NCBI GenBank assembly: GCA_963763775.1
Contig: CAVXPZ010000004.1
Span: 480,001-544,000, forward strand
DNA from: an uncultured Chloroflexia bacterium
GTDB taxonomy: Bacteria; Chloroflexota; Limnocylindria; Limnocylindrales; CSP1-4
Length of the DNA: 64,000 nucleotides
Direction of reading: 5' to 3'
Positions 749-28,761 of the stretch are shown piece by piece. The translations under genes and the position numbers were made by a program. The notes under the pieces were generated by a model. The model made no database searches. It was not told the origin of the DNA and worked only from the letters and a program-made list of their open reading frames with translations. The stretch's first letter is position 1. Each line of letters starts with the position of its first letter.

Positions 749-1216
749 ATGGCCACCCTCGGGGTTCCGACGATCCTGGGCTCGCTGCAACGGGCGACCA
801 ACACCTACGAGCAGCGCCTCGACGAACGGCTGATCGAGCTGGGACTCACGTCCCGTGAACTCCAGGTGATGCGATCGGCCTTCATCGAGGACGCGACGAT
901 CGCGCAGGTCCGCGCGGCGACGGGCATGCACCCGTCGACGCTGTCGAGTCTCGTCGCCCGCTTGATCCGTGCCGGCTACCTGCGGAAACGGCGTGGCGGC
1001 CCGGATGGCCGCCATCGAGTCATCGAGCTCACGATCCCCGGCGCCGAGGCCGCACGGATCGCCGAGGACATCCTCTTCGAACTCGAGGCGGCGATCCAAC
1101 GAGAGACCGACGATCGAGGCGGACTCGACGCCCTGACGTCGGTCGTCGACGCCATCTCGCGCCTGCCCATCGCGTCGACCGATCCCGCGGATGGACTACC
1201 CGAAACGACGGCATGA
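749..1216 (+). CDS. MarR-family winged-helix transcriptional regulator
   Basis: LGLTSRELQVM...STLSSLVARLIRAGYLRKRR..DGRHRVIELT.G pattern; GGAGG at 739-743; start uncertain. Confidence 0.85.
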   Translation: MATLGVPTILGSLQRATNTYEQRLDERLIELGLTSRELQVMRSAFIEDATIAQVRAATGMHPSTLSSLVARLIRAGYLRKRRGGPDGRHRVIELTIPGAEAARIAEDILFELEAAIQRETDDRGGLDALTSVVDAISRLPIASTDPADGLPETTA

Positions 1217-1229
1217 GCGGCGGCGGCGA

Positions 1230-1736
1230 TCAGGGATCGCCCACGGCCGGATCGCGGAGCAGGCGCCGTTCCATTGATCGCATCGCGGCCTCCTCGGCCG
1301 GCTCGGCATGGTCCATGCCCATGATGTGGAGCGTCCCATGGGTGACGAGCAGTCGCAGCTCGTCGGCCGGCGCCCAGCGGACGTCGCCCGTCTGGCCGCC
1401 GCGTCCGGCCTCGGCCTGCTCGACGGCCCGTTCCACGGAGACGACCATGTCGCCGAGGTGCGGCCGTCGGCCCGGCGGGAGCGGGAACGGATCGTCCGAC
1501 AACAGCGGGAACGAGAGGACGTCCGTCGGGCCGTCCTTCCCCATGTGCGTGGCGTTGAGGCCGGCCAGCTCGGCGTCGTCGCTGAGGATGAGACCGATCG
1601 AGGCCGGCTTGGGGGCATCGGCCGCGGCCAGCGCCGCGACGATCGCCCGTGCGAGGACGACGGTGGCGACCGGCGGGCGGACGCCGTCACGGACGTCGAC
1701 GTCGATCCGCCATGGCCCGAGGTAGATACTTCGCAC
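1230..1736 (-). CDS. ybeY: rRNA maturation endoribonuclease YbeY
   Basis: LN..HMGKDGPTDVLSFP, LGDMVVS, HGTLHIMGMDH (HxxxHxxxxxH). Confidence 0.92.
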   Translation of the reverse strand: MRSIYLGPWRIDVDVRDGVRPPVATVVLARAIVAALAAADAPKPASIGLILSDDAELAGLNATHMGKDGPTDVLSFPLLSDDPFPLPPGRRPHLGDMVVSVERAVEQAEAGRGGQTGDVRWAPADELRLLVTHGTLHIMGMDHAEPAEEAAMRSMERRLLRDPAVGDP

Positions 1737-1807
1737 GGCGACACGGTAGTCGAGTCGAGGGCGTGCAGGGTCGATGGACGCAGCGTCGCGACGATCCTGG
1801 CCTCGAG

Positions 1808-4002
1808 CTAGGAGGCGGTCCCGCCCCCGGTGCCGCCCGCCCGTCGCGCCGCCGCCGCCGGCCGCCGCGCGCCGCGACTCGAGCTCCACCACGGTGTTCT
1901 GCGGGTAGGCGATCCGCGTGTGGTACATGCCGAGCAACTGCTCGACGAAGGCCTCGCGGATCCGCTCGAGGTCGCGGAGCGTCAGGTCGCACTCGTCGAA
2001 CTGGGCATCCGAGGTGCGCTCCTCGATGATGCGGCTGACCATGCCGCGGATGGCCGGCTCGTCGCGCGACGCGAGGGATCGGACGGATGCCTCGACGCCG
2101 TCGGCGAGCATGATCAGCGCCGCCTCACGCGTCTGCGGCTTCGGCCCGGCATGGCGGAACACGCGTTCGTCGACCGCCGCGGCGGCCTTCGCGCCTTCGG
2201 CGCTGGTGAGCCCGCCGTACGCGGCGGCAGCCCGCTCCTTCGCCCGGGCGAAGAAGTAGCTCATGATCGCGGTCCCGTGGTGCTGCGGGATGTAGGCGAT
2301 CAGGGCCTTCGGCAGGCGGTTCTTGTACGCGAGGTCGATGCCGTCGACCACGTGCTGCTTGACGATCTGGGCGCTGACCTCGGGCTCGAGCTGGTCGTGG
2401 ATGTTCTCGCCGCCGGCCTGGTTCTCGATGAAGGCGAGCGGGTTCGCGAGCTTGCCGATGTCGTGGTAGTACGCCGCGACGCGCGTCACGAGCGGGTCCG
2501 CGCCGATGGCCTCGGCCGCGCGTTCGGCGAGGTTGCCGACCATCAGCGAGTGGTGGTAGGTGCCGGGCGTCTCGACGAGCAGCCGTCGCAGGAGCGGCTG
2601 TGACGGGTTCGCCAGCTCGAGGAGCTGGAAGACGGTCAGGATCCCGAAGACCGAGCCGAGGACGGCGAACGTCCCGACGGCCGCGATCCCGGACCCGGCC
2701 GCCGATGCGGCCGAGGCGAACCACAGCTCGACGATGCCCTGGATGTCCCTGCGCCCCGAGGAGCGAGAAGACCGTGACGACCGCGGCATTCACGACGAAG
2801 ACCGCGAACGCGGCCTGCACGAACACCTGCAGGCGGTCGCCGCGCCGGATGGTGATGATCCCGGCGAGCCCGCCGAGGAAGATGTAGGACGCGAATTCGA
2901 GCGAGCCGCCGTTCACGGCGCCGCCGATGATCGCGACCAACGCCATCACGACCGTCGCCAGCGAGGCATCGAGCAGGATCGCGAGCAGCATCCCGATGGC
3001 CGCCGTCGGGAGGAAGTACTGCAGGATCGACCGGCCGGCGGTGACCTTCAGGGCGACCGTGGCGCCCGCCACGAGGAGCCCGGTCAGCAGGAGCGCGTTG
3101 TCCCGGTGCCACAGACCCGGGCGGAACCGCCACAGCCAGCCGAGCAGGATCCCGACGATCAACGCGCCGAGGATCGCCCAGCCGACCAGGCTCGCGACAT
3201 CCGGTCCGCGGTCGCCGGTCAGCCCGATCGCGTCGATCTTCTCGATGTCCTCGGCGGTCAGGCGCTCGTTGGCCCGGACGATGGCCTCGCCCTGGAGGAT
3301 CTGGACCATCACCGGGGCGACGGCCTCGGCCGCCTTCGACTGCTCCTGCGCGGTGAGCGGTGCGCTGAACGACGAGTTGGGGACGACGAGCGGGTTGATG
3401 AGCTCCGCCGCGAGGGCCCGCTGGTCGGCGTCCAGGCCGCCCGCCATCAGGCCCGCCAGGCGCGTCCGCGTCTCCGCGACCTCGGTGTCGCGCAACTCGG
3501 CTCGAAGCAGCGCATCGAGGACGCGCGCGGACTCCGTGCGGATGATCGGCCAGTCGCCCGGCTTGACCGCCGCGAGCGTCGCCCGTGCGTCCTTCGACAG
3601 GTCCGGGATGGCGGTCTCGAGGAGCGACGCGCGCTCGGCCTCGGGCAGGTCGGCGGCGAACGTCGTATCGACGCGGGAGACGCGCTGCTCGAAGGCGAGC
3701 TGCTGCTCCTGGGCGATCGCGATCGCGTTGTCCGTCGTGAAGTCGTACTGCGGCGGGACCGCCTCGCGGGCGGTGGCCCGCGCGGCCTCGGTCTGCGCGG
3801 CGCTCTCGAATTCCGTGGTCTTGGTCGCGATGATGTCGCGCGGCGCGAGGTCGCCGGCGGCCAGCGACAGCGGCTGCTGCGGCAGGATGTCCGCCCCGAG
3901 CACCACCGTCAGGATGATCACGAGGATCGCCGCGGAGATCCCGAGGCGCGTGGCGTCGCGGCGCGTGAATCGGGCGATCGCGTCGACGCGCTGGGTCAGC
4001 AT
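1808..4002 (-). CDS. 7TM-HD phosphohydrolase (PgpH/YqfF-like c-di-AMP phosphodiesterase family); frameshifts near 2750 and 1830
   Basis: Extracellular 7TM-HDED region and TM helices in ORF 2125-4002; PGTYHHS, YYHDIGK, QHHGT, LADGVEA HD motifs in ORF 1230-2789; typical ybeY neighbour. Confidence 0.88.
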
Positions 4003-12325: not shown

Positions 12326-13442
12326 CCCAGACCGAGCTTCTCGAGGAAGCCGCCGGAGCCGTGGACCTCTTCGCCGCTCTCGGCCGCGAGTTCGGTCAGC
12401 AGCTCGCGCTGCCGCTTCGAAAGCTTGGTTGGCACGACCACGTCGACCATGACGTGGAGGTCGCCGCGCGACCCCGCCCGTCGCAGGTGCGGGACGCCCT
12501 TGCCGCGCAGGCGGATCTCGGTGTCCGGCTGGGTGCCGGCCTTGATCTCGACCTCCTCCTCGCCGTCGACGGTCGGGACGCGGATCTTCGTCCCGAGCGC
12601 GGCCTGGGCGATCGAGATCTTCGCCTCGTACAGGAGCTCCGTGCCCTCGCGCTTGAGCGTCGGATGCGGGGCCACGTGGACCGCCACGTAGAGGCTGCCG
12701 GGCGTCCCGCCTCGGGGACCGACCTCGCCCTCGCCCGAGAGGCGGATCTGGTGGCCCTCGTCGATGCCGGGCGGGATGCTGACACCGGCAGCGTGCGCTT
12801 GCGCTCCGTCCGACCGTCGCCCTTGCAGGTGTGGCACGGCGTCTCGACGATCTTGCCTTCGCCCTTGCAGCGCGGGCAGGCGCTGACGTTGACCATCTGG
12901 CCGAGCATCGTCTGGCGCACGCTGCGGATCTCGCCGCGGCCCTCGCACTGGGGGCAGGTCGTCGCCTCCGTGCCGGGCTCGGCGCCGTTGCCGTGACACG
13001 TCTCGCACGGCTGGAGGACGCGGAACTCGATCTCCTTCTCGGTGCCCTTGACGGCTTCCTCGAAGGTGATGCGGAGGTCGTACCGCAGGTCCGCGCCAGG
13101 CTGCGGCCGTCCGCGCCGCGCCGCCCCGGCTCCGGCCCCGCCGCCGAAGAACGCGTCGAAGATGTCCGAGAACCCACCGAACCCGTCGAAACCCGGGGCA
13201 CCGCCCGCCGCGCCGTCGACCCCCGCGCGGCCGAACATGTCGTACCGCTGGCGGCGGTCCGGATCCGAGAGGACCTGGTACGCCTCGTTGATCTCCTTGA
13301 ACTGCTCCTGCGCGGCTGGATCGGTGTTGACGTCCGGGTGCCATTGCTGGGCGAGCTTGCGGAAGGCGCGCTTGATCTCGGCGTCGGATGCCCCGCGCTC
13401 GACGCCGAGGACCTGGTAGTAGTCGCGCTCGGTGGTGGCCAT
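12322..13442 (-). CDS. dnaJ: Chaperone DnaJ; frameshift near 12785 (likely assembly indel)
   Basis: [11 protein letters not shown] motif, G/F region, four CxxCxGxG repeats; C-terminal IPPGIDEG...GDLHV in a second frame. Confidence 0.95.
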
Positions 13443-13555
13443 GGAGGCTCACAGGATACGGGAGGCGACTCCGGGACTCGTGCGCGCGGGCGGCGCGGTA
13501 CTGTGCGAATGTCCGTCCCGCCCGTCCCGCACGTCCCGCCCGGCTGGAGCCCCCG

Positions 13556-14386
13556 ATGACCGATGCGCCTCGCCTGACCGTCGCGCTCACCTTCGATCAC
13601 GACGCGATCTCCGACTCGGTCCGCCGCGGCGACCCGCCGGTCAAGTTCTCGCACGGCGAGTTCGGGCCGCGCGTCGGCGTGCCGCGGATCCTGTCGCTGC
13701 TGGCGCGCCACGCGATCCCGGCGACCTGGTTCGTGCCCGGGCACACGCTCGAGACGTTCCCGGACTCGATCGACGCGATCCTCGCCGGTGGCCATGAGCT
13801 CGCCTGCCACGGCTGGTATCACGAGGACTTCGCCGAGCTCGACGCCGACGCCCAGGGCGAGATCCTGCGGCGGTGCGTGGAAGCCGTCCGATCGCGGACC
13901 GGCGCCGCGCCGAGCGGCCATCGGGCGCCGTACTGGTCGCTCGGGGCCGGCACGCTCGCGCTCGTGGAGGCGGCCGGGTTCGGCTACGACTCGTCGCTGA
14001 TGTCCGACGACTACCGGCTCGCGCGCGTCCGGCACGGCGACCGGCACTCGACCGCGGCCGGGACGACGTGGGGCGGGGCCGGCCGTCTGGTGGAGGTGCC
14101 CGTCTACTGGGGCCTCGACGACTGGCCGATGTTCGAGCCGGGGCCTGGTCGTGACGGGCTGTCCGCGCCGTCGCGCGTCCTCGAGATCTGGCTTGGCGAG
14201 CTTCGGTACGCCCACGCCAACGCCCCGGGCGGCCTCCTCACGGTGACCATGCACCCGGAATGCATCGGCCGAGGCCACCGGATGGCGATGCTCGAGACGT
14301 TCATCGCCGAGGCGGCCGCCCTCCCGGGCGTCGTGTTCGAGCGCCTGGATGCCGTCGTGAGCCGCTGGTCGGCCGCAAACCCCTAG
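13556..14386 (+). CDS. Polysaccharide deacetylase (CE4/PuuE-like)
   Basis: LTFDHD, ATWFVPG, HELACHGWYH, RAPYW, YDSS, TMHPECIG. Confidence 0.9.
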   Translation: MTDAPRLTVALTFDHDAISDSVRRGDPPVKFSHGEFGPRVGVPRILSLLARHAIPATWFVPGHTLETFPDSIDAILAGGHELACHGWYHEDFAELDADAQGEILRRCVEAVRSRTGAAPSGHRAPYWSLGAGTLALVEAAGFGYDSSLMSDDYRLARVRHGDRHSTAAGTTWGGAGRLVEVPVYWGLDDWPMFEPGPGRDGLSAPSRVLEIWLGELRYAHANAPGGLLTVTMHPECIGRGHRMAMLETFIAEAAALPGVVFERLDAVVSRWSAANP

Positions 14387-14402
14387 GGGACCGAGGCCAC
14401 GC

Positions 14403-14921
14403 ATGATCCTCCCCAAGGTCCGCGATCCGCGGTTCATCACGGTCCGTCGCGGCGGGACCCTGCAGGACGACGACCATCGTCGCCTCGCGATGTGGGCGGC
14501 CGACTGCGCGGAGCACGTGCTGCATCACTTCGAGGTCGCACGGCCGCAGGACGACCGGCCACGTCGCGCGATCGAGCTCGGGCGCTCCTGGGCCAGAGGC
14601 GAGATCCCGTGGGCCGAGGCCCGCACGGCGGCCGGCCATGCGAACGCCGCGGCCAGGGACCTGCGCGGGGCGGCACGGTACGCGGCGTACGCGGCCGCGC
14701 AGGCCGCGGCGGTGGGCCACGTGGCGGCCCATGAGCTCGGTGCGGCCGCCTACGCGATCAGGGCCGTGCAGGCGGCTACGGCCGGAGACGACGAGCGAGC
14801 GGCGGCCGGCCGAGCGGAGTGTCAGTGGCAGCGCGCTCGACTCCCCCGCGAGATCCGGGAACTCGTGCTCGATGACCAGCGGTTGCGCAACGAGCTGTGC
14901 TGGTTCGTGTTCGTGGACTGA
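14403..14921 (+). CDS. Imm5-like putative immunity protein
   Basis: LAMWAADCAEHVLHHFE...DDRPRRAIE..RSWARGE...AHELGAAAYA...ECQWQ helical family pattern. Confidence 0.7.
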   Translation: MILPKVRDPRFITVRRGGTLQDDDHRRLAMWAADCAEHVLHHFEVARPQDDRPRRAIELGRSWARGEIPWAEARTAAGHANAAARDLRGAARYAAYAAAQAAAVGHVAAHELGAAAYAIRAVQAATAGDDERAAAGRAECQWQRARLPREIRELVLDDQRLRNELCWFVFVD

Positions 14922-16430: not shown

Positions 16431-17231
16431 CTATTTGAGGAGCAGCTGGTCGAGCCGCCGCGACACGACGAGCAGCCCCGCCATCCCCATGACCGTCAGG
16501 TACACGACGTGGATCAGCAGGTCCGGGCTGATCGCGCCCACCGTGAGCGAGCGGATGAGGTCCACGCCCTGGTACAGCGGTGTCAGTCGGACGACCAACT
16601 GGAGTGCCGGCGGGTAGGTCGAGAGCGGGTAGAACGTGGCCGAGAAGAGGAACATCGGCAGGACGACCAGCTGGATGAGGTCGAAGTCCTGCCAGGTCTT
16701 CATGAAGGACGTGGCCGCCATGCCGACGGCCCCGAAAGCGAACCCGACGAGCAACGCCGCCGGGAACGCGAGGATGACCCACGGCGAGACGATGAGCCCG
16801 AGCACCGCCATCACGACCATGAACCCGATCGCGTACAGGCCACCGCGCATCAGCGCCCACGCCAGCTCGCCGACCGCGATGTCTCCGGGCGATAGCGGGG
16901 TCGACAGGATCGCCGTGAAGGTCTTGTTGTAGTTGAGCTTGAAGAAGAAGTTGAACGTGCTCTCGCTGATCGCGCCATTCATCGCCGCGCTCGCGAGCAG
17001 CGCCGGGGCGACGAACAGCTGATAGCTGATGGGCTGGCCGTCGGGTCCCGGCACGTCCCCGACGAGGGCGCCCAGCCCGAACCCGATGCTCAGCAGATAG
17101 AACAGCGGCTCGAAGAACCCGGACAGCAGGATGAGCCAGCCGTGGCGGTACAGGTAGAGGTTGCGCTCGACCAGGCGCCACGACCGACGACTGCCGATCA
17201 GGAAGGTAGAGCTCAGGGGCAGCGACGTCAT
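16431..17231 (-). CDS. ABC-2 type exporter permease (NodJ-like)
   Basis: EPLFYLLSIGFGLG, PALLA, PMFLFSATFYP, TPLYQGV. Confidence 0.9.
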   Translation of the reverse strand: MTSLPLSSTFLIGSRRSWRLVERNLYLYRHGWLILLSGFFEPLFYLLSIGFGLGALVGDVPGPDGQPISYQLFVAPALLASAAMNGAISESTFNFFFKLNYNKTFTAILSTPLSPGDIAVGELAWALMRGGLYAIGFMVVMAVLGLIVSPWVILAFPAALLVGFAFGAVGMAATSFMKTWQDFDLIQLVVLPMFLFSATFYPLSTYPPALQLVVRLTPLYQGVDLIRSLTVGAISPDLLIHVVYLTVMGMAGLLVVSRRLDQLLLK

Positions 17232-18043
17232 CAGCGGACCAGCTTCCGACGGATCGTCGTGACCATCAGGACGGTCCCGATCGCGAACATCGTCGTCAGG
17301 TAGACGACGTCGATCACGGCGGCCAGCGGGTCGTCGGCCACGGTGCCGAGCGACAGGGCGCGGGTCAGCTCGACGCCGTGGAAGAGCGGCGTGAACCAGG
17401 CGAGCACCTGCAGCGGCTCCGGCAGGCTGCTGATCGGGTAGAACGTGCCCGAGAACAGGAACAGCGGCGTGATCCCGAACCGGAAGATCGCATTGAACTT
17501 GCTCGGGGTCGGTTGGGTCGCCGCGAACGCGGCGATGGGGGCTGCGAACGCGAGTCCGGTCAGGACCGCGGCGGGGATCGCGAGCACGACGGTCGGCGAC
17601 GCCGCCGCGCCGAACAGCACGATCACGATCGTGAAGATCGTCGCGATCATGAGCATCCGGACCGCGATCCACGCGAGGTTGCCCAGGGCGATGTCCCGGG
17701 GCGAGATCGGCGTCGCGTGCATCGCCTGGAAGATCCGGGTCCAGATGAGTCCGCTCATGATCGGGAACATCGCCTCGAACGAGGCCGATTGCATGCAGGT
17801 CGCCGCCAGCAGCCCCGGGGCGAGGAACTGGAGGTACGAGACGCCGCCGAGCGCGGCCGTGTCGGCAGCACTGTCGACGTACGAGCCGAGGCCGATCCCC
17901 ATCGCGGTCAGGAAGAGGACCGGGGTGAGGAACGAGCTGAAGATGCTCGCGCGGTACGTCCGCCGGTACTGGAGGAACCGGTGCTCGAAGACCCGGCCGA
18001 TCGCCGACGTCTGACCCTGGGCGGCGCCGCTGATGGCGGTCAC
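17231..18043 (-). CDS. ABC-2 type exporter permease
   Basis: YLQFLAPGLLA, PLFLFSGTFYP, TPLFHGVEL. Confidence 0.9.
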   Translation of the reverse strand: MTAISGAAQGQTSAIGRVFEHRFLQYRRTYRASIFSSFLTPVLFLTAMGIGLGSYVDSAADTAALGGVSYLQFLAPGLLAATCMQSASFEAMFPIMSGLIWTRIFQAMHATPISPRDIALGNLAWIAVRMLMIATIFTIVIVLFGAAASPTVVLAIPAAVLTGLAFAAPIAAFAATQPTPSKFNAIFRFGITPLFLFSGTFYPISSLPEPLQVLAWFTPLFHGVELTRALSLGTVADDPLAAVIDVVYLTTMFAIGTVLMVTTIRRKLVR

Positions 18044-18050
18044 GACGCGC

Positions 18051-18989
18051 CTACTCGATCAGCGAGCGGCCGGTCAGCCGCAGGAACACGTCCTCGAGGG
18101 ATGATCGGCGCACGAGGACGGCCTCCGGCTGGAGGCCGCGCTCGTGGACGGCCACGGCCGCCGCCTCGCCGTCGTCCGTGTAGAGGAGAACGCGGTCGGG
18201 AAGGTGCTCGGTGCGCTCCGCCAATCCCTCGAGCTGGCCGTCGAGCGTCTCGGCGACGCCGGGGGCGAAGCGGAGCTCCGTGACCTCCTTCGTCGAGTAC
18301 TGCTCGATGAGGCCGCGGGGGCTGCCCTCCGCCACGATCTTGGCCTTGTCCATGACGACGAGCCGGTCGCACAGCTGCTCGGCCTCGTCCATGTAGTGGG
18401 TCGTGAGGACGAGGGTCACGCCACGCTGCTTGAGCCGGTACAGCCGGTCCCAGAGAAGGTGCCGCGCCTGCGGGTCGAGGCCGGTCGTCGGCTCGTCGAG
18501 GAGGAGGACGTCCGGCTCGTTGATGAGCGATCGAGCGATCGTCAGACGGCGCTTCATGCCCCCCGACAGCGGCTCGACCTGATCGCCGCCGCGCTCGGTG
18601 AGCTGGGCGAAGTCGAGGAGTTCCTCGGCGCGTTTCGCGACCTCGGCCCGGGTCAGCCCGAAGTACCGCCCGTAGATGAGCAGGTTCTCGCGCACCGTGA
18701 GCTCGGTGTCCAGCGTGTCCTGCTGCGGGACCACGCCGAGACGGGCGCGGATCTGGGGACCCTGGGTCGTCGGGTCCATCCCCATGACCCGCAGCTCGCC
18801 GTCAGTGGTCGGCGACACGCAGCCGATCATCCGCATCGTCGAGGTCTTGCCGGCCCCGTTCGGCCCCAGAAAGCCGAACGATTCGCCGGGCGCGACATCG
18901 AAGTCGATGGCGTCCACGGCGGTGAAGTCACCGAAGCGCTTGGTCAGGCCGCGGGCATGGATGAGCGAGGCGTCGGGGGTCTCAGGCAT
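18051..18989 (-). CDS. ABC exporter ATP-binding protein (NodI/DrrA-like)
   Basis: GPNGAGKT, LSGGMKRR, LLLDEPTTGLD, TTHYMDEA. Confidence 0.95.
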   Translation of the reverse strand: MPETPDASLIHARGLTKRFGDFTAVDAIDFDVAPGESFGFLGPNGAGKTSTMRMIGCVSPTTDGELRVMGMDPTTQGPQIRARLGVVPQQDTLDTELTVRENLLIYGRYFGLTRAEVAKRAEELLDFAQLTERGGDQVEPLSGGMKRRLTIARSLINEPDVLLLDEPTTGLDPQARHLLWDRLYRLKQRGVTLVLTTHYMDEAEQLCDRLVVMDKAKIVAEGSPRGLIEQYSTKEVTELRFAPGVAETLDGQLEGLAERTEHLPDRVLLYTDDGEAAAVAVHERGLQPEAVLVRRSSLEDVFLRLTGRSLIE

Positions 18990-19105
18990 GGGCGGGCATG
19001 GTACTGCGACGGCCGGCTGGATGCTCACAGAAACGTGCTACAGTCGAGTAGCACAAGCTTGCAGCGGCGTGCCGACGCCGCCCGCCCTCGAACGGAGCCA
19101 TCGCC

Positions 19106-21199
19106 ATGCGCACGCTCGCCCGTCCCATCGGTCTCGGTCTCGCCGCCCGTGGCGACGTGGAGGAGGTTGTGACCTGGGCGCGGCAGGCACGCGACCAGGG
19201 GCTCGATTCGGTCTGGGTCCACGACAGCTACTTCGAGCGGGACGGCGTCTCGTTCGCGACGGCCATCGCCCTCGCGATCGCGCTCGACGACGACGGCGAC
19301 GAAGCCGGCTTCCGCGTCGCGCTGGGCGCGGCCAACCCGTTCACCCGGCACCCGGTCGTCCTGGCCATGACCGGCTCGGCGCTCGACGAGATCCTGCCCG
19401 GACGGTTCGTGCTGGGCCTCGGGACCGGGCTGCCGCTGCGGCTCAAGCAGATGGGCATCCCGTACGAGCCGGATGCGGCCGTCGAGGGCGTGTCCCAGGC
19501 GATGGACCAGATCCGCGCCCTGTGGGTCGGCGAGCGCCTGCCGTCCGCCACCCCGGGCTTGCCGCCGATCCAGCCGATGTTCCCGCCGACGCACCGCATC
19601 CCGATCGTCATCGCGGCGTACCGCAAGGCGTTCGTGGAGCTCGCGGGCCAGAAGGCCGACGGCTATCTCGCGCGCCCGGCCGAGTCGATCCCGTCGCTGC
19701 GCGGGATCCTGGAACGACTCCGCGCGGCGGCCGTGGCCGCGGGCCGCGACCCGCACGAGATCGAGACCGCCGGGTACCTGCTGTCCCTCGTGGACAAGAC
19801 CCGCCGCGAGGCCCTCAACCGCGCGAAGCGCGAGCCGTTCGTCATCTACATGATGTCGGTGCTCTCGGACGTGTCGCTGCAGCGAGCGGGGTTCGACAAG
19901 GAGCTCCGCGACCGCATCGCCGCCGCCTGGCGGGCCGAGGACTACACGACCGCCGGCAACCTCATCCCCGACGAGCTGCTCGATGCGTTCATGTTGTGCG
20001 GCACGCGCGAGGACGTGGCCGCGGGCGCCATGGCCTACCACGCGCAGGCCGGGCTGCAGTTGCCGCTCCTCCAGCCGGTCCTCCAGGAGGACCGCCAGAT
20101 CGACGAGCTGATCGCCGCGGCGGCGATCTACGCCTCGGTCCCGAAGACCGCCGAAAGCGAGGTGCCGGCCCTCGCTGGGGCGGCCGTCGTCGGGGGCGGG
20201 GAGGGCTCCGGTACGGGCGCGCCCAGCGGCGCCTCGAACGGGACCCCGGTCACCAGCCTCGCCGACGATCGCCAGCTCGGGTTCCGGGACCGCGCGTCGC
20301 GACGCGCCGGGGCCTTGTACGAGATCCTCCGGCCGTTCGCGTTCACCGCCTCGGTCATCCCCGTCCTGGCGGGCGCGGCGCTCGCCTGGGTCGACGAGCT
20401 GTGGAACTGGGCGCCGTTCATCGCGGCCCTGCTCGGCGCCGTCTTCCTCCATGCCGGCACGAACATCGTCAATGAGGTCTACGACGTCCGGAAGGGCGTC
20501 GACTCGATCACGAGCCCGCGGGCCAGCCACGCGATCGTGAAGGGCCGGATGAAGGAGCGGACCGCGCTGATCATCGCGGGCGTCTTCTTCGCGCTCGCCG
20601 TCGTCGTCGGGCTGTACCTGGTCTGGCTGCGCGGGCCGGCGATCATCGTGCTCGGCGTCCTCGGCCTCATCGGGGGGTACGGCTATACCGCGCCGCCACT
20701 CGAGTACAAGAACCGCGCGCTCGGCGTGCCGATCGTCTTCCTGCTGATGGGCCCGCTCATGGTCGAGGGGTCGTACTTCGCGGTCAGCGGCGAGTGGTCC
20801 CTGACCGCGCTCGTGCTCTCGATCCCCGTGGGCCTCCTGGTCGCGGCGATCCTCCACGGCAACGAGTGGCGCGACATCCGCGAGGACAGCCGGGCCGGCA
20901 TCTCGACCATGTCCGCGAAGATCGGCCGACGATGGGCGCACTACGGGTACGTGGCGCTGGTGCTCGGCGCGTACATCGTGCTCGCTCTCGCGGTGATCGC
21001 CGACGTGCTGCCGGCCTGGACGATGCTCGCGATCCTGTCGCTGCCGTTCCTGGCGCAGGTCATCCGCTCCGCGGAGCTCGGCGCCACGGGCCAGGCCCGA
21101 GCCATCGCGATGATCGACCTCCAGACGGCCCGGCTGCATCTGGCCTTCGGGTCCTTGTTGGTGCTCGGGTTGGTGCTGTCCCGGGTCATCGGTGGCTGA
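19106..21199 (+). CDS. Fusion: LLM-class (Mer-like, flavin/F420-dependent) oxidoreductase plus MenA/UbiA prenyltransferase
   Basis: N-half: VWVHDSYFERD, ANPFTRHPVVLA, GRFVLGLGTG. C-half: LRP, NIVNEVYDVRKGVD, YTAPP, NEWRDIREDSRAG and multiple TM helices. Confidence 0.88.
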   Translation: MRTLARPIGLGLAARGDVEEVVTWARQARDQGLDSVWVHDSYFERDGVSFATAIALAIALDDDGDEAGFRVALGAANPFTRHPVVLAMTGSALDEILPGRFVLGLGTGLPLRLKQMGIPYEPDAAVEGVSQAMDQIRALWVGERLPSATPGLPPIQPMFPPTHRIPIVIAAYRKAFVELAGQKADGYLARPAESIPSLRGILERLRAAAVAAGRDPHEIETAGYLLSLVDKTRREALNRAKREPFVIYMMSVLSDVSLQRAGFDKELRDRIAAAWRAEDYTTAGNLIPDELLDAFMLCGTREDVAAGAMAYHAQAGLQLPLLQPVLQEDRQIDELIAAAAIYASVPKTAESEVPALAGAAVVGGGEGSGTGAPSGASNGTPVTSLADDRQLGFRDRASRRAGALYEILRPFAFTASVIPVLAGAALAWVDELWNWAPFIAALLGAVFLHAGTNIVNEVYDVRKGVDSITSPRASHAIVKGRMKERTALIIAGVFFALAVVVGLYLVWLRGPAIIVLGVLGLIGGYGYTAPPLEYKNRALGVPIVFLLMGPLMVEGSYFAVSGEWSLTALVLSIPVGLLVAAILHGNEWRDIREDSRAGISTMSAKIGRRWAHYGYVALVLGAYIVLALAVIADVLPAWTMLAILSLPFLAQVIRSAELGATGQARAIAMIDLQTARLHLAFGSLLVLGLVLSRVIGG

Positions 21200-21912
21200 C
21201 CGGTCGGGGGTCGGTGGCGACGCGGCCGCGGCCGCGGGTGGCTCCGGCTCGGGCGTCGCGCCGAGAGCCGCAGCGCTCCCCGGCTCGGGCGTCGCGCCAG
21301 GCGCCCTCGGTGTCGGCCTCCTTGCGGCGCAGGCCGCGTTCGCCGCGACCTTCCGCGGCCCACGCGACCGCTTCTGGCACCGGATGACGCTGACCGGCCT
21401 GTCGCTCGGGTCGCTCGCGTTGCTGACCAGCCGGCCCGCGCGTCGGACACGGATCGGTCCGACCGAGGTCGCGCTCGGGCTCGCGTCCGCGGCAACGCTC
21501 TATGCCACCTTCCGGGTCGGCGACGCGTTCGCGCGGCGGTTCGTGCCGAGCGGCGATGCCGAGATCCGCGACATCTACACGTTGCGGACCCTGCGGCCGA
21601 AGCCGGAGATCGCGGCCCGTCTCGCGACGATCATCGGGCCTGCCGAGGAACTGTTCTGGCGCGGCCTCGTGCAGGAGGCGCTGATGGCCCGCTACGGCCG
21701 CTGGCCCGGGGCCGCGATGGCGGCGATGGCCTACGGCGGGGTCCACATCGTGACGGGCAACTTCACGCTGTTCGGCGCCGCGGGGATCGCGGGTGCCCAT
21801 TGGTGCGCGCTGTACGCGGCCGGCGTCCCGCTCGGGGCGCTGGTCGTCAGCCACGTCACGTGGGACGTCTGGATCTTCCTCATCCAGCCGACCGGCGAGA
21901 TCGCCCCGCTGA
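21192..21912 (+). CDS. CPBP (CAAX protease/Abi) intramembrane metalloprotease; true 3' end uncertain
   Basis: AEELFWRG, AYGGVH, SHVTWD; start overlaps the fusion gene's stop. Confidence 0.82.
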
Positions 21913-22006
21913 CAACCCGCGGCCGCCGGCACGACGTAAGCGCCGGCGAAGCACTCCGACCACCCGGTAAGCCGTGGGCGAAGCGGCCGCCCGCCATCCT
22001 CGCGCG

Positions 22007-22790
22007 ATGGACATCGTCCGGTCGGCCTCGATCTGCGGGCGCTCCGCCACCGACGACGGCTGGACCCAGCGGCGCGCTCGCGAGCGAAGGCCAGGGTCTC
22101 GAGGTCGGTCGATCTGGCGTGATCGAGCGCGGTCATGCCGATCGACGTCGCGGTCGCGACGGTCGTCGCGCGTCGCGGCGGCCCTCGGCGGTCGGTATCG
22201 GTATCCGGCTGCTCTGGCACGGCGAAGGGCTCGACCGACTCCTCGACCGGCGTCACGCCGTCTCGTGGAACGCATGGTCGACGTCCTCCGGGACGAGGGA
22301 TGGGACGTCGACACCGAGGTGACCGTTCAGCGAGTTCGCGGCGAGCGCGGATCCGATCGACATCCTCGCGTTCCATGCCGGTGACCGGCGCCCTGCTCGT
22401 CATCGAGGTCAAGTCGGTCGTCCCCGACCTGCAGGCGATGCTCGTCGGCACTCGATCGGAAGGGCCGGCTTGCACCCGACATCGCCGCCGAGTCGGCTGG
22501 CGGGCGACGTCGGTCTCGCGGTTGCTGGTCCTCCCGGACGACCGGACGTCCCGACGTCGAATCGCGCATGCACGCGGCCACGTTCGCGATGGCCTTCCTG
22601 CCGACGCGGACGGTCGAGGTCCGAGCGGTGGCTCCGTCGGCCGGAGGCGCGATCGCGCGGCCTGTTGTTCCTGACAGATGCCACATCAGGCGGCCACACG
22701 TCACCGGGTCGGGGGCTCGCCAGCCAGACCCCGACGTCCGCGCGGAGCGCGCACGCTCGAGGCGTGAGATGTCGAGCGGCCGAACTCCTG
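22007..22790 (+). pseudogene. XRE-type HTH plus restriction-endonuclease-like domain protein, multiply frameshifted
   Basis: Fragments across frames: GWTQ, IERGH, LLWHGEGLDRLLD, LRDEGWDVDTEVT, GALLVIEVKS, SRLLVLPDDRT, LLFL. Confidence 0.55.
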
Positions 22791-22991: not shown

Positions 22992-24965
22992 CTAGACCTC
23001 CTTGAACTCGCCTTCGACGGTCTCCTCGCCCTCGGGTGTCGAGCCCTCGGCGGAGCCGTCCCCGGCACCGGCCGAGCCGTCACCCGAGCCTGCGCCGGAC
23101 CCGTCATCGGCGCCCGAGCCGTTCCCGCCGTCCGTGCCGGCACCGGCCGCCGACGCGGCCTGGTACGCGGCCGTGGACACCCGGTTGAGGGTCTCGGCCA
23201 GGGACGTCATCTGGCTCTTCACCGCGTCGACGTCCGAGCCCTTGAGCGCCTCGCGCAGCCCCTCGACCTTGTTCTCGACCTCGATCTTGTCCTCGGACGA
23301 GATCTTGTCGCCGAGGTCCTTGACGACGCGCTCGGCCTGGAAGGTCAGGGCCTCCGCATCGTTGCGGACCTCGACCTCCTCGCGCCGTGCCTTGTCCTCG
23401 GACGCGTGCTCCTGCGCCTCTCGGACCATCTGGTCGACGGCGCTCTTGTCGAGCATCGACGACGCCGTGATCCGGACCTGCTGTTCCTTGCCGGTCGCCC
23501 GGTCCTTGGCCTTGACGTCGAGGATGCCGTTCGCATCGATGTCGAACGTGACCTCGATCTGCGGCACGCCGCGCGGCGCCGGCGGGATCCCGTCGAGGAT
23601 GAACCGGCCGAGCGTCTTGTTGTCCGCCGCGAAGTCGCGCTCGCCCTGGAGGACGTGGATCTCGACCTGCGACTGCGAGTCGCTCGCGGTCGAGAACACC
23701 TGCGACTTCGATGTCGGGATGGTGGTGTTGCGCTCGATGAGCTTCGTCATGACGCCGCCGAGCGTCTCGATGCCGAGCGAGAGCGGCGTGACGTCGAGCA
23801 GCAGGACGTCCTTGACGTCGCCCGCGAGGACGCCGGCCTGGATCGCCGCCCCGATGGCCACGACCTCGTCCGGGTTGACGCCCTTGTGCGGTTCCTTGCC
23901 GCCGAACATCGCCTTGACCGCCTCGACGACGGCCGGCATCCGCGTCATGCCGCCGACGAGGATGACCTCGTCGATGTCGCCGGCCTTGAGCCCGGAGTCC
24001 TTGATGGCGGCCTTGACCGGACCCTCGGTCTTCTTGACCAGGTCCGCGACCAGGTCCTCGAGCTTCGCCCGGGTCAGCGAGACCACGAGGTGCTTGGGGC
24101 CGGTGGCGTCGGCGGTGATGTAGGGGAGGTTGATCTCGGTCGTCGTCGTCGACGAGAGCTCGATCTTCGCTTTCTCGGCGGCCTCCTTGAGGCGCTGGAG
24201 GGCCTGCTGGTCCTTCGCGAGGTCGATGCCCTGATCCTTCTTGAACTCCGCGAGCAGCCACTCGATCACGCGCTGGTCGAAGTCGTCGCCGCCCAGGTGG
24301 GTGTCGCCGTTGGTCGCCTTGACCTCGAAGACGCCTTCGCCGAGCTCGAGGATCGAGATGTCGAACGTGCCGCCGCCCAGGTCGTAGACGGCGATCTTCT
24401 CGTCGCCCTTCTTGTCGAGGCCGTAGGCGAGCGCCGACGCGGTCGGCTCGTTGATGATCCGCTTGACGTCGAGGCCGGCGATCCGCCCGGCGTCCTTGGT
24501 CGCCTGGCGCTGGGTGTCGTCGAAGTAGGCCGGGACGGTGATGACCGCCTCGGTGATCTTCTCGCCGAGGTACGCCTCGGCGTCCGTCTTGAGCTTCTGG
24601 AGGATCATCGCGCTGATCTCGGGCGGCGTGTACGACTTGCCGTCGGCCAGGTCGACGGCGACGCCGTCGGACTTGCCGTCCTTGGCGACCGTGTACGGGA
24701 CGAGATCCTTCGAGCGCTTGACCTCCGGGTCGTCCCAGCGGCGGCCCATGAACCGCTTGATCGAATAGACGGTATTGGCCGGGTTGGTCACGGCCTGGCG
24801 CTTGGCGAGCTGGCCGACGAGCCGCTCCCCGGTCTTCGTGAAGGCGACGACCGAGGGGACCGTCCGGCCGCCCTCGGCGGACGCGATGACGGTGGGCTCG
24901 CCGCCCTCCATGACGGCGACGACGGAGTTCGTCGTCCCGAGGTCGATGCCGATGATCTTGCCCAT
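22992..24965 (-). CDS. dnaK: Chaperone DnaK
   Basis: [45 protein letters not shown]. Confidence 0.99.
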
Positions 24966-25015
24966 TGGCGTGGTGCTCCTTGGATCCTTAGAGGGGGGGT
25001 CGGTGTCGGGATGGA

Positions 25016-25579
25016 TCAGTTGATGGGGGTGCTCGAGGCGTCGCCCGCGACGGCCACGAGGGCCGGCCGCAGGACGCGGTCGCGGAGCCGGTAGCCGCGC
25101 CGGACCTCCTCGACGATCTCGCCCTCGGGGCGCCCGGTACCGGGCACGTTCACGATGGCCTCGTGCTCGCGAGGGTCGAACGCGAGTCCCGGCGCTGCGT
25201 CGATGCGGCTGACGCCCTCGGACTCGAGGAGCGTGCGCAGCTTGCGGTCGATGGCGGCGATGCCCTCGAACCACGGGTCGTCGGCGATGGACGCCGGCCG
25301 AGCCTCGATGGCCCGGTCGAAGTCGTCGGCGAGGGTCAGGACCTTGCGGATCAGATCCTCGTTCGCCAGCCCGAGGTCGCGGTCGCGCTCCTCGGCCGTG
25401 CGGCGCTTGAAGTTGAGGAACTCGGCGCGCTCGCGCTGGAGCGCCGCCAGGTAGTCCTCGGCGTGCTGCTGGCTCTCGGCCAGGGCCGCCTGGAGCATCT
25501 CGATGTCGGCGAGGAGCTTGGTCGGCGAGACATCGATCTCGTCGACGCGCGCCTGCGCGCGCGTCCGGTGACTAGGCAT
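25016..25579 (-). CDS. grpE: Nucleotide exchange factor GrpE
   Basis: [38 protein letters not shown]. Confidence 0.96.
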
Positions 25580-26639
25580 AGAGGTGGTCCACCAGTTCGT
25601 TCATCAGGCCCGAGACGAAGCGGACCGTGCCGATCGCCTGCGAGTAGCTCATCCGGGTCGGTCCGAGGACGCCGACGACGCCGATCGCCCGACCGGGTCG
25701 CCCGTACGGGGCGAGCACCAGCGAGACGTCGCGCATCTCGACCGGCGTGTTCTCGTGGCCGATGTAGACCTGGATCCGGCCGGCGTCGGCCACGTCGCCG
25801 ACGAGCTGGCCGAGATAGGCCCGGTTCTCGAGGGCCGAGAAGACGCGGCGGAGCTTGTCGCTCTGCGCGAACTCCGGGGCGTCCATCACGTTGAGGAGAC
25901 CGTCGCTGAAGACCTCCTCGATGGCCTCGGCGTCGTAGTCGCGCACGACCCGCACGACGCGGTCGCCGATCCGGCGGGCGAGGCCCTCGACCCGGTCGTC
26001 CGGTCGGAGCCGACCGATGACCGTCTCGGCGCGATCCGCCGTCGCACTGCTGAGCCGGTCGTTGAGCAGGGCGGCGACCTGGTTGAGCGTGGGCTGGTCG
26101 ATGGCGTCGTCGTCCGCGAGACCGACCAGCGCCTGCTTGATCGCGCCCTCGCGCAGGACGAGGATGAGGCTCGCCATGCGCTCGTTGATCGCCACGAGGT
26201 CGATGCGGCGGATGTGGGCAGAGCGTGCCTTGGCCGGCGTCGCCAGGCCCGCGGACCGGGTGATGCTCGCGAGCGTCGTCGCGGCGAGGCGGAACCAGTG
26301 CTCGCTGGCGAACTCCACCTGGCCGAACTGGTGACGGATCATCAACTGCTCGACAGCGGGCAGCGGCACGACGTCCGAGATCGATTCCACGTAGAAGCGA
26401 TAGCCCGAATCGGTCGGCATGCGGCCCGCGGAGGTATGCGGGTGCGTCAGGAGGCCGGCCGCCTCGAGCTCCGCCAGGATGCTGCGGACCGTCGCGCTCG
26501 ACACACCGAGCCCGTATCGCTCCACGAGCGCCTGCGAGCCGACGGGGACGGCGGTCGCGACATATTCCTCGATGACGGCCCGGAGGATCGCCTGTGAACG
26601 GAGGTCCAGGGGGCCGAGGGGGCGGTTTCGACGCGCCAA
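25572..26639 (-). CDS. hrcA: Heat-inducible transcription repressor HrcA
   Basis: ILRAVIEEYV, PVGS, SSATVR, PHTSAGRMPTDSGYRFYV, GVLGPTRMSY. Confidence 0.97.
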   Translation of the reverse strand: MARRNRPLGPLDLRSQAILRAVIEEYVATAVPVGSQALVERYGLGVSSATVRSILAELEAAGLLTHPHTSAGRMPTDSGYRFYVESISDVVPLPAVEQLMIRHQFGQVEFASEHWFRLAATTLASITRSAGLATPAKARSAHIRRIDLVAINERMASLILVLREGAIKQALVGLADDDAIDQPTLNQVAALLNDRLSSATADRAETVIGRLRPDDRVEGLARRIGDRVVRVVRDYDAEAIEEVFSDGLLNVMDAPEFAQSDKLRRVFSALENRAYLGQLVGDVADAGRIQVYIGHENTPVEMRDVSLVLAPYGRPGRAIGVVGVLGPTRMSYSQAIGTVRFVSGLMNELVDHLYA

Positions 26640-26766: not shown

Positions 26767-27994
26767 TCAGACCAGGCGGGCGAACAGCTCGTTCGAGAGC
26801 AGGCGGCCGCGCGTCGTGAGGACGACGCGGTCGTCGGGTGTCACGTTCACGAGCTCGGCGGTCAGTGCCCAGCCGAATGCGTCCGCGAGCGGGGGCTCGG
26901 TGGTGGCCGCGAAGGGCACGCCGGTGTCGAGCCGAAGGCCCAGGATCACGCGTTCCACGGCCGCCGTCTCCGCGTCGACCGACTCCGAGTCACCGGGCGG
27001 CAACGACGGGGTCGACCCGTCCCCCGGGGTCAAGCGCCGCGACGTAGCCGTCGAGCCGGGCCGCGTTCCATCGACGCGTCGCGCCGTCGAAGGCGTGCGC
27101 CCCCGGACCGACCGCCTCATAGGGTCGCCGCTCCCAGTACGCGCGGTTGTGCCGGCTCTCGTGCGAGGGTCGGGCCCAGTTGCTGATCTCGTACCCGCGA
27201 TAGCCCGCCTCGGCGAGTCGAACGACCGCATGGTGGTACTGGGCCGCAGCGTGATCCTCGTCCTGCGTCGAGCGGGCGATCTCGCGCCACCGTCGAGCGC
27301 CGGCGGTCGTCGGCAGATGGTCGCCGCCCAGCCCGGTCAGACCCTCGGCGTCGGGGTCGTCGAGCGTGAGGGCGTAGAGCGACAGGTGATCCGGACCGAG
27401 GTCGATCGCCGCGTCGAGGGTGGTCATCCAGCTCACGACGCTCTGGTCGGGGAGGTCGTACAGCAGGTCGAGGCTGACCGACCGGACGCCGGCCCGCCGG
27501 GCCTCGCGAACGGCGTCGCCGACGTCAGCGGCGCGGTGCCGCCGGCCCAGGCGCTTGAGCTGGCCGTCGTCGAGGGACTGCGCCCCGATGGACAGACGCG
27601 TGATCCCGGCCTGGAGCCAGGCCGCCGGGTCGCCCCGCTCGTCGGGACCGGGGTTCGCCTCGAGGGTCACCTCGGCGCCTGCGATGAGGCCGAACCGGCG
27701 GCGCACCTGCTCGACGATCCGCGCGACCTCGTCCGGGGCGAGCAGCGACGGGGTCCCGCCGCCGAGGTACAGGCTCTCGAGCGGCGCGCGACCCGGCCCG
27801 ACCGCGACATCCAGCGCATCGGCCCGGAGATCGATCTCGACGGCGAGGGCGTCGAGGAAGGACGCCGTGCGAGCCGCGGGTCCCCTGGCTGCGGCCCCCG
27901 CGTACACGACGAAGTCGCAGTACGGACAGATCGAGACACAGAACGGGATGTGCACGTACATCGCGACCGGCGGACCCCCCGCGGCGACGATCAT
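26767..27994 (-). CDS. hemW: Radical SAM heme chaperone HemW (HemN-like); frameshift near 27030
   Basis: YVHIPFCVSICPYCDF, GGGTPS, EANP, YEISNWA, HNRAYW; C-terminal LGLRL...LTTRGRLLSNE in a second frame; lies between lepA and hrcA. Confidence 0.9.
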
Positions 27995-28761
27995 CGCTCC
28001 CTCGTCGCCGATTCGCGCGTCCCGATGACGCGCCAGCCGTCCGGCGGCCGGCGCCGTTTGTCGATCTCCTCCACCTCGCGACCGCGCGGCTTCGTCTGAC
28101 CCGCGTGCCCGGTGCACAGGAAGACCGCGAAGCGGGTGATCGCGTGGCCAAGGAACGCCGCCGCGATGCCGCCGGTCACGACCGTCAGCCAGCCGCCGAT
28201 GAGGCCCATCCCCAGCGTCATGAAGAACAGGTACTTGTCACGTCCGGACGCCCCGAGGCGGGTCGTCAGGGTGTAGAGGAAGGCCTGGATGACGTTCGCG
28301 AGGGACGGATTCATCCCGGTGGACAGCAGCAAGCCGAAGATGGCGCCGCGGAACGCGACTTCGTCGATGAACGCGGTGGCGACCGAGTTGAGCAACGCCC
28401 CCGGATACGACCAGGCCCCCGGGAAGCGGATGCGGTGGTACCGGTAGGTGGCGAACGCCACGGCGAACGCGACACCGCCGAGCCCATACAGGAGGCCGCC
28501 CAGGACGGCCAGCAGCCGGTCGCCGGAGCCCAGGAACAATCGGTTCTGCGGGTCCGGGTGGATGATCAGGATCATGAGGGCCAGGCCCACGCCGATCCCG
28601 TACCAGGCGAGTCGCCGGCGGATCTTGGGGCTCTCGCCGTCCCGCGTGGCCTCGTAATACTCGGCGGTGCCGAAGCGCTCCGACTCGAGGCGGAGCATCG
28701 CCATCAGCAGGGCGAGCCCGACCGTGACGAGGCCGCGGGACCACTCGATATAGGCGTCCAC
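27991..28761 (-). CDS. CPBP-family membrane protein with degenerate motifs
   Basis: IDEVAFRG and GHAITRF; second motif lacks the His (LYTLTT). Confidence 0.7.
   Translation of the reverse strand: MDAYIEWSRGLVTVGLALLMAMLRLESERFGTAEYYEATRDGESPKIRRRLAWYGIGVGLALMILIIHPDPQNRLFLGSGDRLLAVLGGLLYGLGGVAFAVAFATYRYHRIRFPGAWSYPGALLNSVATAFIDEVAFRGAIFGLLLSTGMNPSLANVIQAFLYTLTTRLGASGRDKYLFFMTLGMGLIGGWLTVVTGGIAAAFLGHAITRFAVFLCTGHAGQTKPRGREVEEIDKRRRPPDGWRVIGTRESATRER

Follow-up and report, generated by a model that had tools for sequence, protein, structure and literature searches.

We analysed a stretch of 64,000 nucleotides (the window) from an uncultured Chloroflexia bacterium that GTDB places in Limnocylindria, Limnocylindrales, CSP1-4 (assembly GCA_963763775.1, contig CAVXPZ010000004.1, positions 480,001 to 544,000 of the forward strand), centring on one gene that joins a luciferase-like monooxygenase (LLM) domain to a predicted membrane prenyltransferase of the MenA/UBIAD1 type, and on the CPBP-family intramembrane protease gene that overlaps its end. 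Positions are those of the window unless another contig is named. The two genes and their parts are as follows.

19106 to 21199, forward strand: the fusion open reading frame (ORF) P0001, 697 aa, ATG start and TGA stop, made up of an LLM domain, a linker and a MenA/UBIAD1-type prenyltransferase.
19145 to 20044, forward strand: LLM triosephosphate isomerase (TIM)-barrel domain, residues 14-313, from Pfam, PDB sequence matches and Foldseek, with the F420-dependent methylene-tetrahydromethanopterin reductase (Mer) nearest.
19811 to 19855, forward strand: LLM segment A236-LNRAKREPFVIYM-M250, invariant in 25/25 aligned sequences and specific to the fusion family.
20141 to 20281, forward strand: low-complexity Gly/Ala/Ser/Pro linker, residues ~346-392, variable in length and sequence among homologues.
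20282 to 21196, forward strand: UbiA-superfamily membrane domain, residues 393-697, an amphipathic lead helix and nine long helices.
20471 to 20503, forward strand: first Asp-rich motif, N456-EVYDVRKGV-D466, from alignment with the UBIAD1 motif.
20861 to 20887, forward strand: second Asp-rich motif, N586-EWRDIRE-D594, from alignment with the UBIAD1 motif.
21192 to 22322, forward strand: gene for an Rce1-like intramembrane protease of the CPBP family (Pfam Rce1-like, 41.5 bits with a cut-off of 22.4).

The ORF call and the Pfam matches bear out the original prediction that a single 697-aa frame carries an LLM barrel, a linker and a UbiA domain, and its claim that the stretch from about 20112 to 20470 is stop-free in all forward frames holds on the stop-codon map, where one frame has its flanking stops at 20109 and 20538 and another has one at 20473, the frame of the ORF itself having none. 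GC at the three codon positions is 0.71/0.48/0.96 in a genome of 70% GC, which is typical of genuine genes of this host. An AlphaFold2 model built from 45 aligned sequences (mean predicted local distance difference test score, pLDDT, 89.5; predicted template modelling score, pTM, 0.73) begins with a TIM barrel, is disordered over residues 351-386 and ends in an amphipathic helix followed by nine long ones, and the hydropathy segments agree with this layout. Residues 351-386 are the only long stretch with pLDDT below 50 and lie inside the linker, in which G, A, S, P and T dominate.

The architecture recurs in other genomes and in metagenomes. The best 120 clusters in a search of 5.8 billion proteins were all two-domain proteins of ~680-700 aa and 77-91% identity. 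Among 151 genomes of the host class (carriers being those with a best E of at most 1e-85), 65 hold both halves in one open frame at an identity of at least 57%, distributed over the five families of the class (f1 to f5) as 18/45, 0/6, 38/49, 8/50 and 1/1. A phylum-wide sample of 401 genomes yielded 36 carriers, 23 of them outside the host class in at least six families, which we take to be Dormibacteria from GTDB taxonomy and the taxon label of the nearest CPBP clusters. When one genome per species was scanned with the pattern of the invariant LLM segment, 384 stretches encoded a fusion relative (thus at least 384 species-level genomes), and the best 80 of these were labelled Chloroflexota, Chloroflexia or a name beginning with Limnocylindr, with one exception. 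In metagenome contigs gathered with the nearest stand-alone homologue as query, the LLM part lay directly upstream, in the same frame and with no stop, at 60 of 62 testable loci. That a single indel is an unlikely origin of the fusion, as first argued from the window, now has hundreds of independent assemblies behind it. The fusion is genuine and old, and it is widespread among uncultured Chloroflexota of soil and freshwater.

The spread is patchy, with only 3 of the 10 genomes of the window's own genus carrying the fusion. One apparent gene split (G027) was rejected, since its halves sit at the ends of two short contigs and the break therefore lies in the assembly. Another genome (G146, C8:68091-70196, L013) has an in-frame TAG in the LLM part that leaves ORFs of 152 and 550 aa, which may reflect decay of the fusion where the classical pathway is present, as this genome also has MenB. 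Nine of the genomes counted in the class and phylum are flagged as unpublished (G067, G087, G091, G096, G106, G112, G123, G281, G456), on which no claim rests alone, and one apparent full-length representative at 53% (P0128) proved to be a frame-scrambled sequence and was left out of the alignment and tree. Database names of the fusion proteins are automatic, either 'LLM class flavin-dependent oxidoreductase' or 1,4-dihydroxy-2-naphthoate (DHNA) prenyltransferase, and a full-text literature search, with supplements and subscription journals outside its reach, returned no paper on the fusion architecture or on a CPBP-MenA pairing.

Turning to the C-terminal half, Pfam UbiA (PF01040) covers residues 417-650 (E 4.4e-33, 115 bits against a cut-off of 34.2), and the AlphaFold2 model and hydropathy predict about nine transmembrane helices. 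The Asp-rich motifs had at first been read as variant forms; aligned position by position with human UBIAD1, both match it residue for residue and thus have the normal MenA/UBIAD1 form. Across 25 fused homologues, D460 is invariant in the first motif and N456, E457, G464 and D466 are conserved in at least 90%, as are N586, E587, W588 and D594 in the second, where R589 and D590 are invariant. Both motifs presumably sit on cytoplasmic loops, as in solved members of the UbiA family. The best solved match is UBIAD1 (8djk), with an E of 3e-24 by sequence and a target-normalised TM-score of 0.82 by fold. On the MenA model NF004749 the fusion scores 169.5 bits against 94 for the only other MenA-like paralogue of the host genome, and its prenyltransferase domain is by this measure the most MenA-like protein encoded there. 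A quick IQ-TREE tree of 70 UbiA-type rows, rooted on E. coli UbiA, gathered the fusion domains into one clade (100% in the Shimodaira-Hasegawa-like approximate likelihood-ratio test, SH-aLRT) nested among uncharacterised stand-alone MenA-like proteins, with the canonical MenAs and E. coli MenA in a separate clade (99%) that also takes in the MenA copies from men operons of relatives and MenA3, a third local type. The nearest stand-alone homologues bear automatic labels only, with no taxonomy. The domain looks MenA-like, yet by score, by clade and by the missing DHNA genes it falls outside the MenA equivalogs.

For the N-terminal half, Pfam Bac_luciferase spans residues 14-313 (E 8.7e-42, 144 bits against a cut-off of 27.9), and NCBIfam returned 13 LLM-type matches, all but one to F420 families and none over its cut-off. 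The best PDB sequence matches were to Mer (1z69, E 2e-29; 8qpl, E 2.6e-25), and a Foldseek search gave Mer chains target-normalised TM-scores of 0.85-0.89 within a top 30 consisting entirely of LLM proteins; after Mer, the solved structures run through F420-dependent glucose-6-phosphate and alcohol dehydrogenases to flavin mononucleotide (FMN) enzymes. F420-dependent LLMs are described as dividing into reductases and dehydrogenases (PMC6279831). A check for F420 biosynthesis genes in the host genome was answered in part, with cofD present (298 bits against a cut-off of 257) and the Fo synthase gene cofH not found over its cut-off by profile search. Across the 151 class genomes, cofD exceeds its cut-off in 116 and cofH in 2; because cofH is so rare, F420, where made, must start from scavenged Fo, and the counts suggest that the deazaflavin Fo is scavenged class-wide. 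With cofD in place, the host genome likely uses F420, while the cofactor of the LLM domain itself could be F420, Fo or flavin. The host genome holds 29 Bac_luciferase matches in total, and an LLM gene adjoins its cofD (C1:1116327-1117244).

The original prediction had missed the partner gene. Its GTG start overlaps the fusion stop by 8 nt, and its conserved core (residues ~43-235, 21318-21896) holds E152, E153, R157, H185, H221 and D225, all invariant in 15/15 sequences, so that the three motifs EExxxR, (F/Y)xxxH and HxxxD, which we take to be the Rce1/CPBP signatures, are invariant as well. A basic N-terminal motif, F54-RGPRxRFWxRM-T66, is also conserved. Beyond about residue 245, a tail of ~130 aa (21927-22322) is unique to this assembly, as 14 orthologues end earlier, and may stem from a lost stop or an assembly indel. 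The CPBP gene lies directly downstream on the same strand at 20 of 20 genome loci with downstream DNA and at 63 of 63 testable metagenome loci. It also follows two unfused sister-group prenyltransferases (L118, L119) near which there is no LLM gene, so the prenyltransferase-CPBP pair is older than the fusion. Going by this gene order, CPBP appears to be the obligatory partner of the prenyltransferase subfamily. A complex prediction for the prenyltransferase (392-697) with the CPBP core (40-245), run with alignments for both, scored 0.00 and carries no weight either way. Another CPBP gene of the Rce1-like type is found 6 kb away (27991-28761, reverse strand), adjoining a radical SAM gene (26990-28117) and lepA.

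The pair is enclosed by two borders that delimit a site shared with relatives, here called the men site.

16431 to 19028, reverse strand: divergent ABC-2 transporter, left border of the men site (Pfam; ATPase 18051-19028, permeases 17231-18043 and 16431-17672).
22992 to 25274, reverse strand: dnaK, right border of the men site (Pfam), then grpE (25016-25579) and hrcA (25572-26639).

In the window the order is ABC-2, fusion, CPBP, dnaK, with nothing else between the borders. A genome of the same family (G098) has instead ABC-2, MFS, menG-E-C-A-B-D-F and dnaK, and its MenA is canonical (307.7 bits against a cut-off of 264). The ABC-2 ATPase (75-84% identical) flanks the men operon in G098, where it is 75% identical to that of the window, and the fusion locus in the close relative L037. 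In L037 and L033, whose fusions are 87-92% identical, the order is ABC-2, MenC-like, PPOX, stand-alone MenA3, fusion, CPBP, dnaK, and in G008, a genome without the fusion, it is dnaK, MenA3, PPOX, menG, ABC-2. The module thus sits in a variable site given over to menaquinone genes. A divergent menG lies beside the fusion at 26 of 45 testable metagenome loci, and the adjacent copies exceeded the TIGR01934 cut-off in 5/5 tested. Other neighbours vary by lineage and were set aside because they give no coherent pathway (GNAT acetyltransferase, gltX, molybdopterin oxidoreductase, hisA/F-like, glcDEF-like, RND efflux, phosphoribosyltransferase). In L037 (1693-4912; likewise L033 and L115) the MenC-like enolase-superfamily gene scores 135 bits against 288 and MenA3 141 against 264, the PPOX gene of the three loci is a weak PPOX/F420-class match, and the MenC-like, PPOX and MenA3 genes were not found in the host genome.

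We then set the module against the quinone genes of its carriers. The host genome encodes NuoH and a COX1 heme-copper oxidase and therefore needs a quinone. A profile search of this genome found none of MenB, MenD, MqnA/D and MenG over cut-off, and the check for another menA that the original prediction had proposed brought up no other canonical copy. Without menB, menD and mqnA, the substrate cannot be home-made DHNA. Besides the fusion, the UbiA paralogues encoded by the host are heme o synthase, a MenA-like protein of 411 aa that is of another type (L002), a frame-split copy and a prenyltransferase-glycosyltransferase fusion. Across the class, MenB exceeds its cut-off in 20/151 genomes and PF02621 (MqnA/D) in 2/151; fusion and MenB coincide in 3/151 (G020, G022 and the genome with the in-frame TAG, G146), with 62 genomes holding the fusion only, 17 MenB only and 69 neither. 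MenG/UbiE was matched in 60 of the 65 fusion genomes (59 over cut-off), in 17/17 with MenB only and in 23/69 with neither. Within f1, MenG occurs in 31/34 genomes with MenB or the fusion versus 2/11 with neither, and within f4 in 8/8 fusion genomes versus 11/42 others. In a second order (16 genomes) we counted 9 with the fusion, 5 with MenB and no overlap, the 2 with neither being 58-64% complete, and MenG was present in 7/9 of the fusion genomes; this replication is our best control for relatedness. Fusion and MenB are thus almost mutually exclusive, and MenG travels with the fusion.

The 411-aa protein represents a third MenA-like prenyltransferase type (PRK05951-like) and lies in the host genome (G000) at C1:1309204-1310436 (L002:1205-2440). 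It occurs in 50/151 class genomes, mostly ones without MenG (all 6 of the small f2 genomes; g21, 9/9), and in 0/18 f1 genomes with MenB, and from this distribution the class seems to hold three alternative MenA-like systems.

We propose that the fusion is a reductase-prenyltransferase that takes a ring precursor which the known pathways do not make, probably one scavenged in oxidised form, and channels it into a menaquinone-type quinone methylated by MenG, a tentative proposal to which we give slightly less than an even chance. The C-terminal domain would be a MenA/UBIAD1-type polyprenyltransferase with its active site facing the cytoplasm, to which the flexible linker would tether the Mer-like LLM domain. 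The latter would act as a hydride-transfer reductase (with F420, Fo or flavin), converting an oxidised ring precursor to the quinol at the prenyltransferase. UBIAD1 is reported to be inactive without reductant, its authors stating for menadione (MD) that 'reduction of MD is required for prenylation' (PMC4398444). As UbiA-type enzymes of this branch accept only a reduced ring, the LLM domain would most simply be a ring reductase that passes an air-sensitive quinol on. Because the module replaces the whole ring-forming operon and yet accompanies MenG, the ring would have to come from elsewhere, by neither the classical nor the futalosine pathway; the most probable candidate would be an environmental naphthoquinone (oxidised DHNA, 1,4-naphthoquinone or similar). 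Such scavenging is plausible in a class that also seems to scavenge Fo, and quinone-auxotrophic bacteria have been reported to use exogenous DHNA and related quinones (PMC10746273, PMC6687433). In most carriers MenG would then C-methylate the prenylated product, yielding a respiratory quinone of the menaquinone type. The CPBP protein would be an obligatory membrane partner of this prenyltransferase subfamily and may be in contact with the fusion.

The men site, the adjacency and co-occurrence of menG and the near-exclusion of MenB lend support to the earlier idea of coupled redox and prenylation on a menaquinone-type compound. Several observations weigh against our proposal, the catalytic part of which is predicted. 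The flavin/F420 dependence proposed at the outset stands only in part: cofD is present in the host, in every f1 and f4 carrier of the fusion and in 9/9 carriers of the second order, and among the class fusion genomes it was found in 38/65 with no match in 27/65, so F420 cannot be the universal cofactor, and cofH is nearly absent class-wide. The genomes with no cofD match are 26 of the 38 f3 carriers and the single f5 genome, several of them 91-96% complete, and their LLM domains still hold the family's invariant residues. Mer, the best NCBIfam match of the LLM domain, reaches 134 bits against a cut-off of 276, and the prenyltransferase domain stays below the MenA equivalog cut-offs (NF004749, 169.5 against 277; NF004751, 153.7 against 264; TIGR00751, 79.8 against 102.15). 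Its clade stands apart from canonical MenA, so the ring substrate may differ from DHNA. The absence of MenB does not by itself predict the fusion, as 69/151 class genomes have neither, and the profile counts overstate independence because the genomes are related, from one lineage. The host genome and G101, unlike most carriers, have no MenG, and in the host the product would accordingly stay unmethylated or the assembly misses the gene. Finally, the module comes with no linked transporter or uptake gene, and ABC-2 systems are usually exporters.

Comparing the module with the closest known systems, MenA (for example E. coli b3930 and the copy in the men operon of relatives) shares with the fusion the UbiA fold, nine helices and both Asp-rich motifs, and the likeness extends to the best NCBIfam matches, the men-site location and the menG linkage of many carriers. 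The fusion is 30% identical to the E. coli enzyme and 34% to the canonical one of G098, within identities of 30-35%, and it differs from MenA in its N-terminal LLM domain, the CPBP gene that always follows and the lack of DHNA synthesis genes alongside. UBIAD1, the animal menadiol geranylgeranyltransferase, is reported to use a ring from outside the pathway and to need it reduced (PMC4398444). Unlike the fusion, however, it has no reductase domain and depends on other reductants, and its product needs no methylation, whereas most fusion carriers keep MenG. Mer provides the best sequence and fold matches of the LLM domain, from which the fusion is set apart by a context free of methanopterin, the family-specific invariant segment 236-250 and the many carriers without cofD. 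Dedicated reduction of a quinone ring in vitamin K synthesis has a reported precedent in NdbB/NDC1, the demethylphylloquinone reductase (PMC5299476), and F420H2 as a two-electron donor to menaquinone has one in Ddn/Fqr (PMC8498797, PMC3567243). These are separate proteins of NDH-2 or split beta-barrel FDOR folds with no link to a prenyltransferase. The partner gene resembles Rce1 and bacterial CPBP proteins in its Pfam Rce1-like match and three invariant motifs, and differs from known CPBPs in its conserved basic N-terminal motif and its prenyltransferase linkage. We know of no CPBP protein tied to a quinone prenyltransferase.

The co-occurrence and adjacency of menG would also fit an LLM domain that acts after prenylation, either converting demethylmenaquinone to the quinol for MenG, as NdbB/NDC1 does, or saturating a tail isoprene, as MenJ does. 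In Synechocystis and Arabidopsis, a dedicated reduction ahead of MenG is described as established (PMC5299476, citing Fatihi et al. 2015). We nevertheless consider a post-prenylation role unlikely, given that it leaves unexplained the replacement of the men operon, the near-absence of coexistence with MenB and the source of the ring, and that the host genome has the fusion with no MenG.

A second alternative keeps the reductase domain as the means by which a ring is held reduced and changes the ring itself: a common, easily oxidised benzenoid hydroquinone such as homogentisate would undergo decarboxylating prenylation and then UbiE/MenG-type methylation to yield a plastoquinone-like quinone, whose higher potential would suit these aerobes. 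Plant plastoquinone synthesis needs only this two-step route of prenylation and methylation. In favour of a benzenoid ring we count the absence of a known naphthoate pathway in carriers, the separation of the prenyltransferase clade from canonical MenA, a 4-hydroxyphenylpyruvate dioxygenase (HPPD) in the host genome (418 bits against 277) and adjacent methyltransferases that score 155-169 bits on the methyl-plastoquinone MpqE model, albeit below its cut-off. HPPD is, however, a common catabolic enzyme, by sequence and fold the domain matches MenA models and UBIAD1 best and not homogentisate prenyltransferases, and in close relatives the module sits at the men site beside MenA3 and MenC-like genes, all of which makes the benzenoid route an improbable one in our judgement.

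The constancy of the CPBP gene raises the thought of a product other than a quinone. Eukaryotic Rce1 cleaves prenylated proteins, and the invariant catalytic-type residues of CPBP, together with its tie to the prenyltransferase subfamily even where the LLM domain is missing (L118, L119), could mean that prenyltransferase and CPBP act jointly on another substrate, for instance a secondary metabolite or a prenylated protein or peptide, while the LLM domain serves for tailoring. To our knowledge UbiA-family enzymes do not prenylate proteins; moreover, no candidate substrate gene is conserved beside the pair, and the link to MenG, the position in the men site and the way the module complements MenB all point away from such a role, which we hold to be very unlikely. 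An assembly or frameshift error, or a decaying pseudogene, in the host genome has next to no probability and is rejected, as the frame-split genes of this assembly, the odd 130-aa CPBP tail and the in-frame TAG of G146 stand against an intact frame here with a third-position GC of 0.96, stop-free class and phylum scans, the uniformly two-domain best clusters and the single frame of nearly all testable metagenome loci, and open frames across independent assemblies refute it for the family.

The folds and the chemistry of the fusion are known and their combination is uncharacterised, and the way it behaves across genomes suggests that quinone biosynthesis has an entry so far unrecognised. Respiration cannot do without quinones, and we know of only two menaquinone routes. 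Here, a conserved two-gene module of abundant uncultured soil and freshwater bacteria sits at the place of the classical operon and hardly ever coexists with it, in carriers that keep a respiratory chain and usually the last methyltransferase, and none of the ring-forming genes. If the fusion is a salvage enzyme, quinone head groups would be traded as public goods in soil, and the fusion would be a bacterial counterpart of animal UBIAD1 with the long-sought reductase built in; if it serves de novo synthesis, a new quinone pathway would be at hand. Naphthoquinones and the deazaflavin Fo are predicted growth factors that could help in culturing these lineages, and either reading supplies concrete, clonable genes.

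We also offer a bolder and rather doubtful version, namely that aerobic Chloroflexota (Limnocylindria and Dormibacteria-type lineages) make a respiratory quinone by a third, so far unrecognised route with fusion and CPBP at its core. Its ring would come not from chorismate via men/mqn but from a recycled environmental naphthoquinone or a common metabolite (such as homogentisate), delivered as the quinol by the reductase domain, with CPBP catalytic, for example in releasing or trimming the ring donor, and with a new quinone type as a possible outcome in uncultured soil bacteria that rank among the most abundant.

As to the material itself, the host assembly is 87% complete by markers. Several of its genes are frame-split, with matches divided over two or three adjacent frames: nuoH in three pieces (C3:458741-459880), heme o synthase (C1:1474996-1475746), a UbiA paralogue (C1:182030-182717) and a methyltransferase (C1:907427-908436), which suggests assembly indel errors or pseudogenes. 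A search of sequencing runs with sampled words listed no RNA run and eight DNA runs, each with at most 0.09 of the words.

Elsewhere in the window, a polysaccharide deacetylase gene is followed by a gene for an Imm5-like putative immunity protein (125.8 bits), both on the forward strand (13388-14921). The host genome holds a second LLM/UbiA pairing at G000:C1:1282662-1285827 (L004:148-1140 and 1166-3328), in which a Bac_luciferase gene of 330 aa immediately precedes a gene whose 720-aa product fuses a UbiA-family prenyltransferase (PRK13105-like, below cut-off) to a GT2 glycosyltransferase (HpnB/CruG-like).

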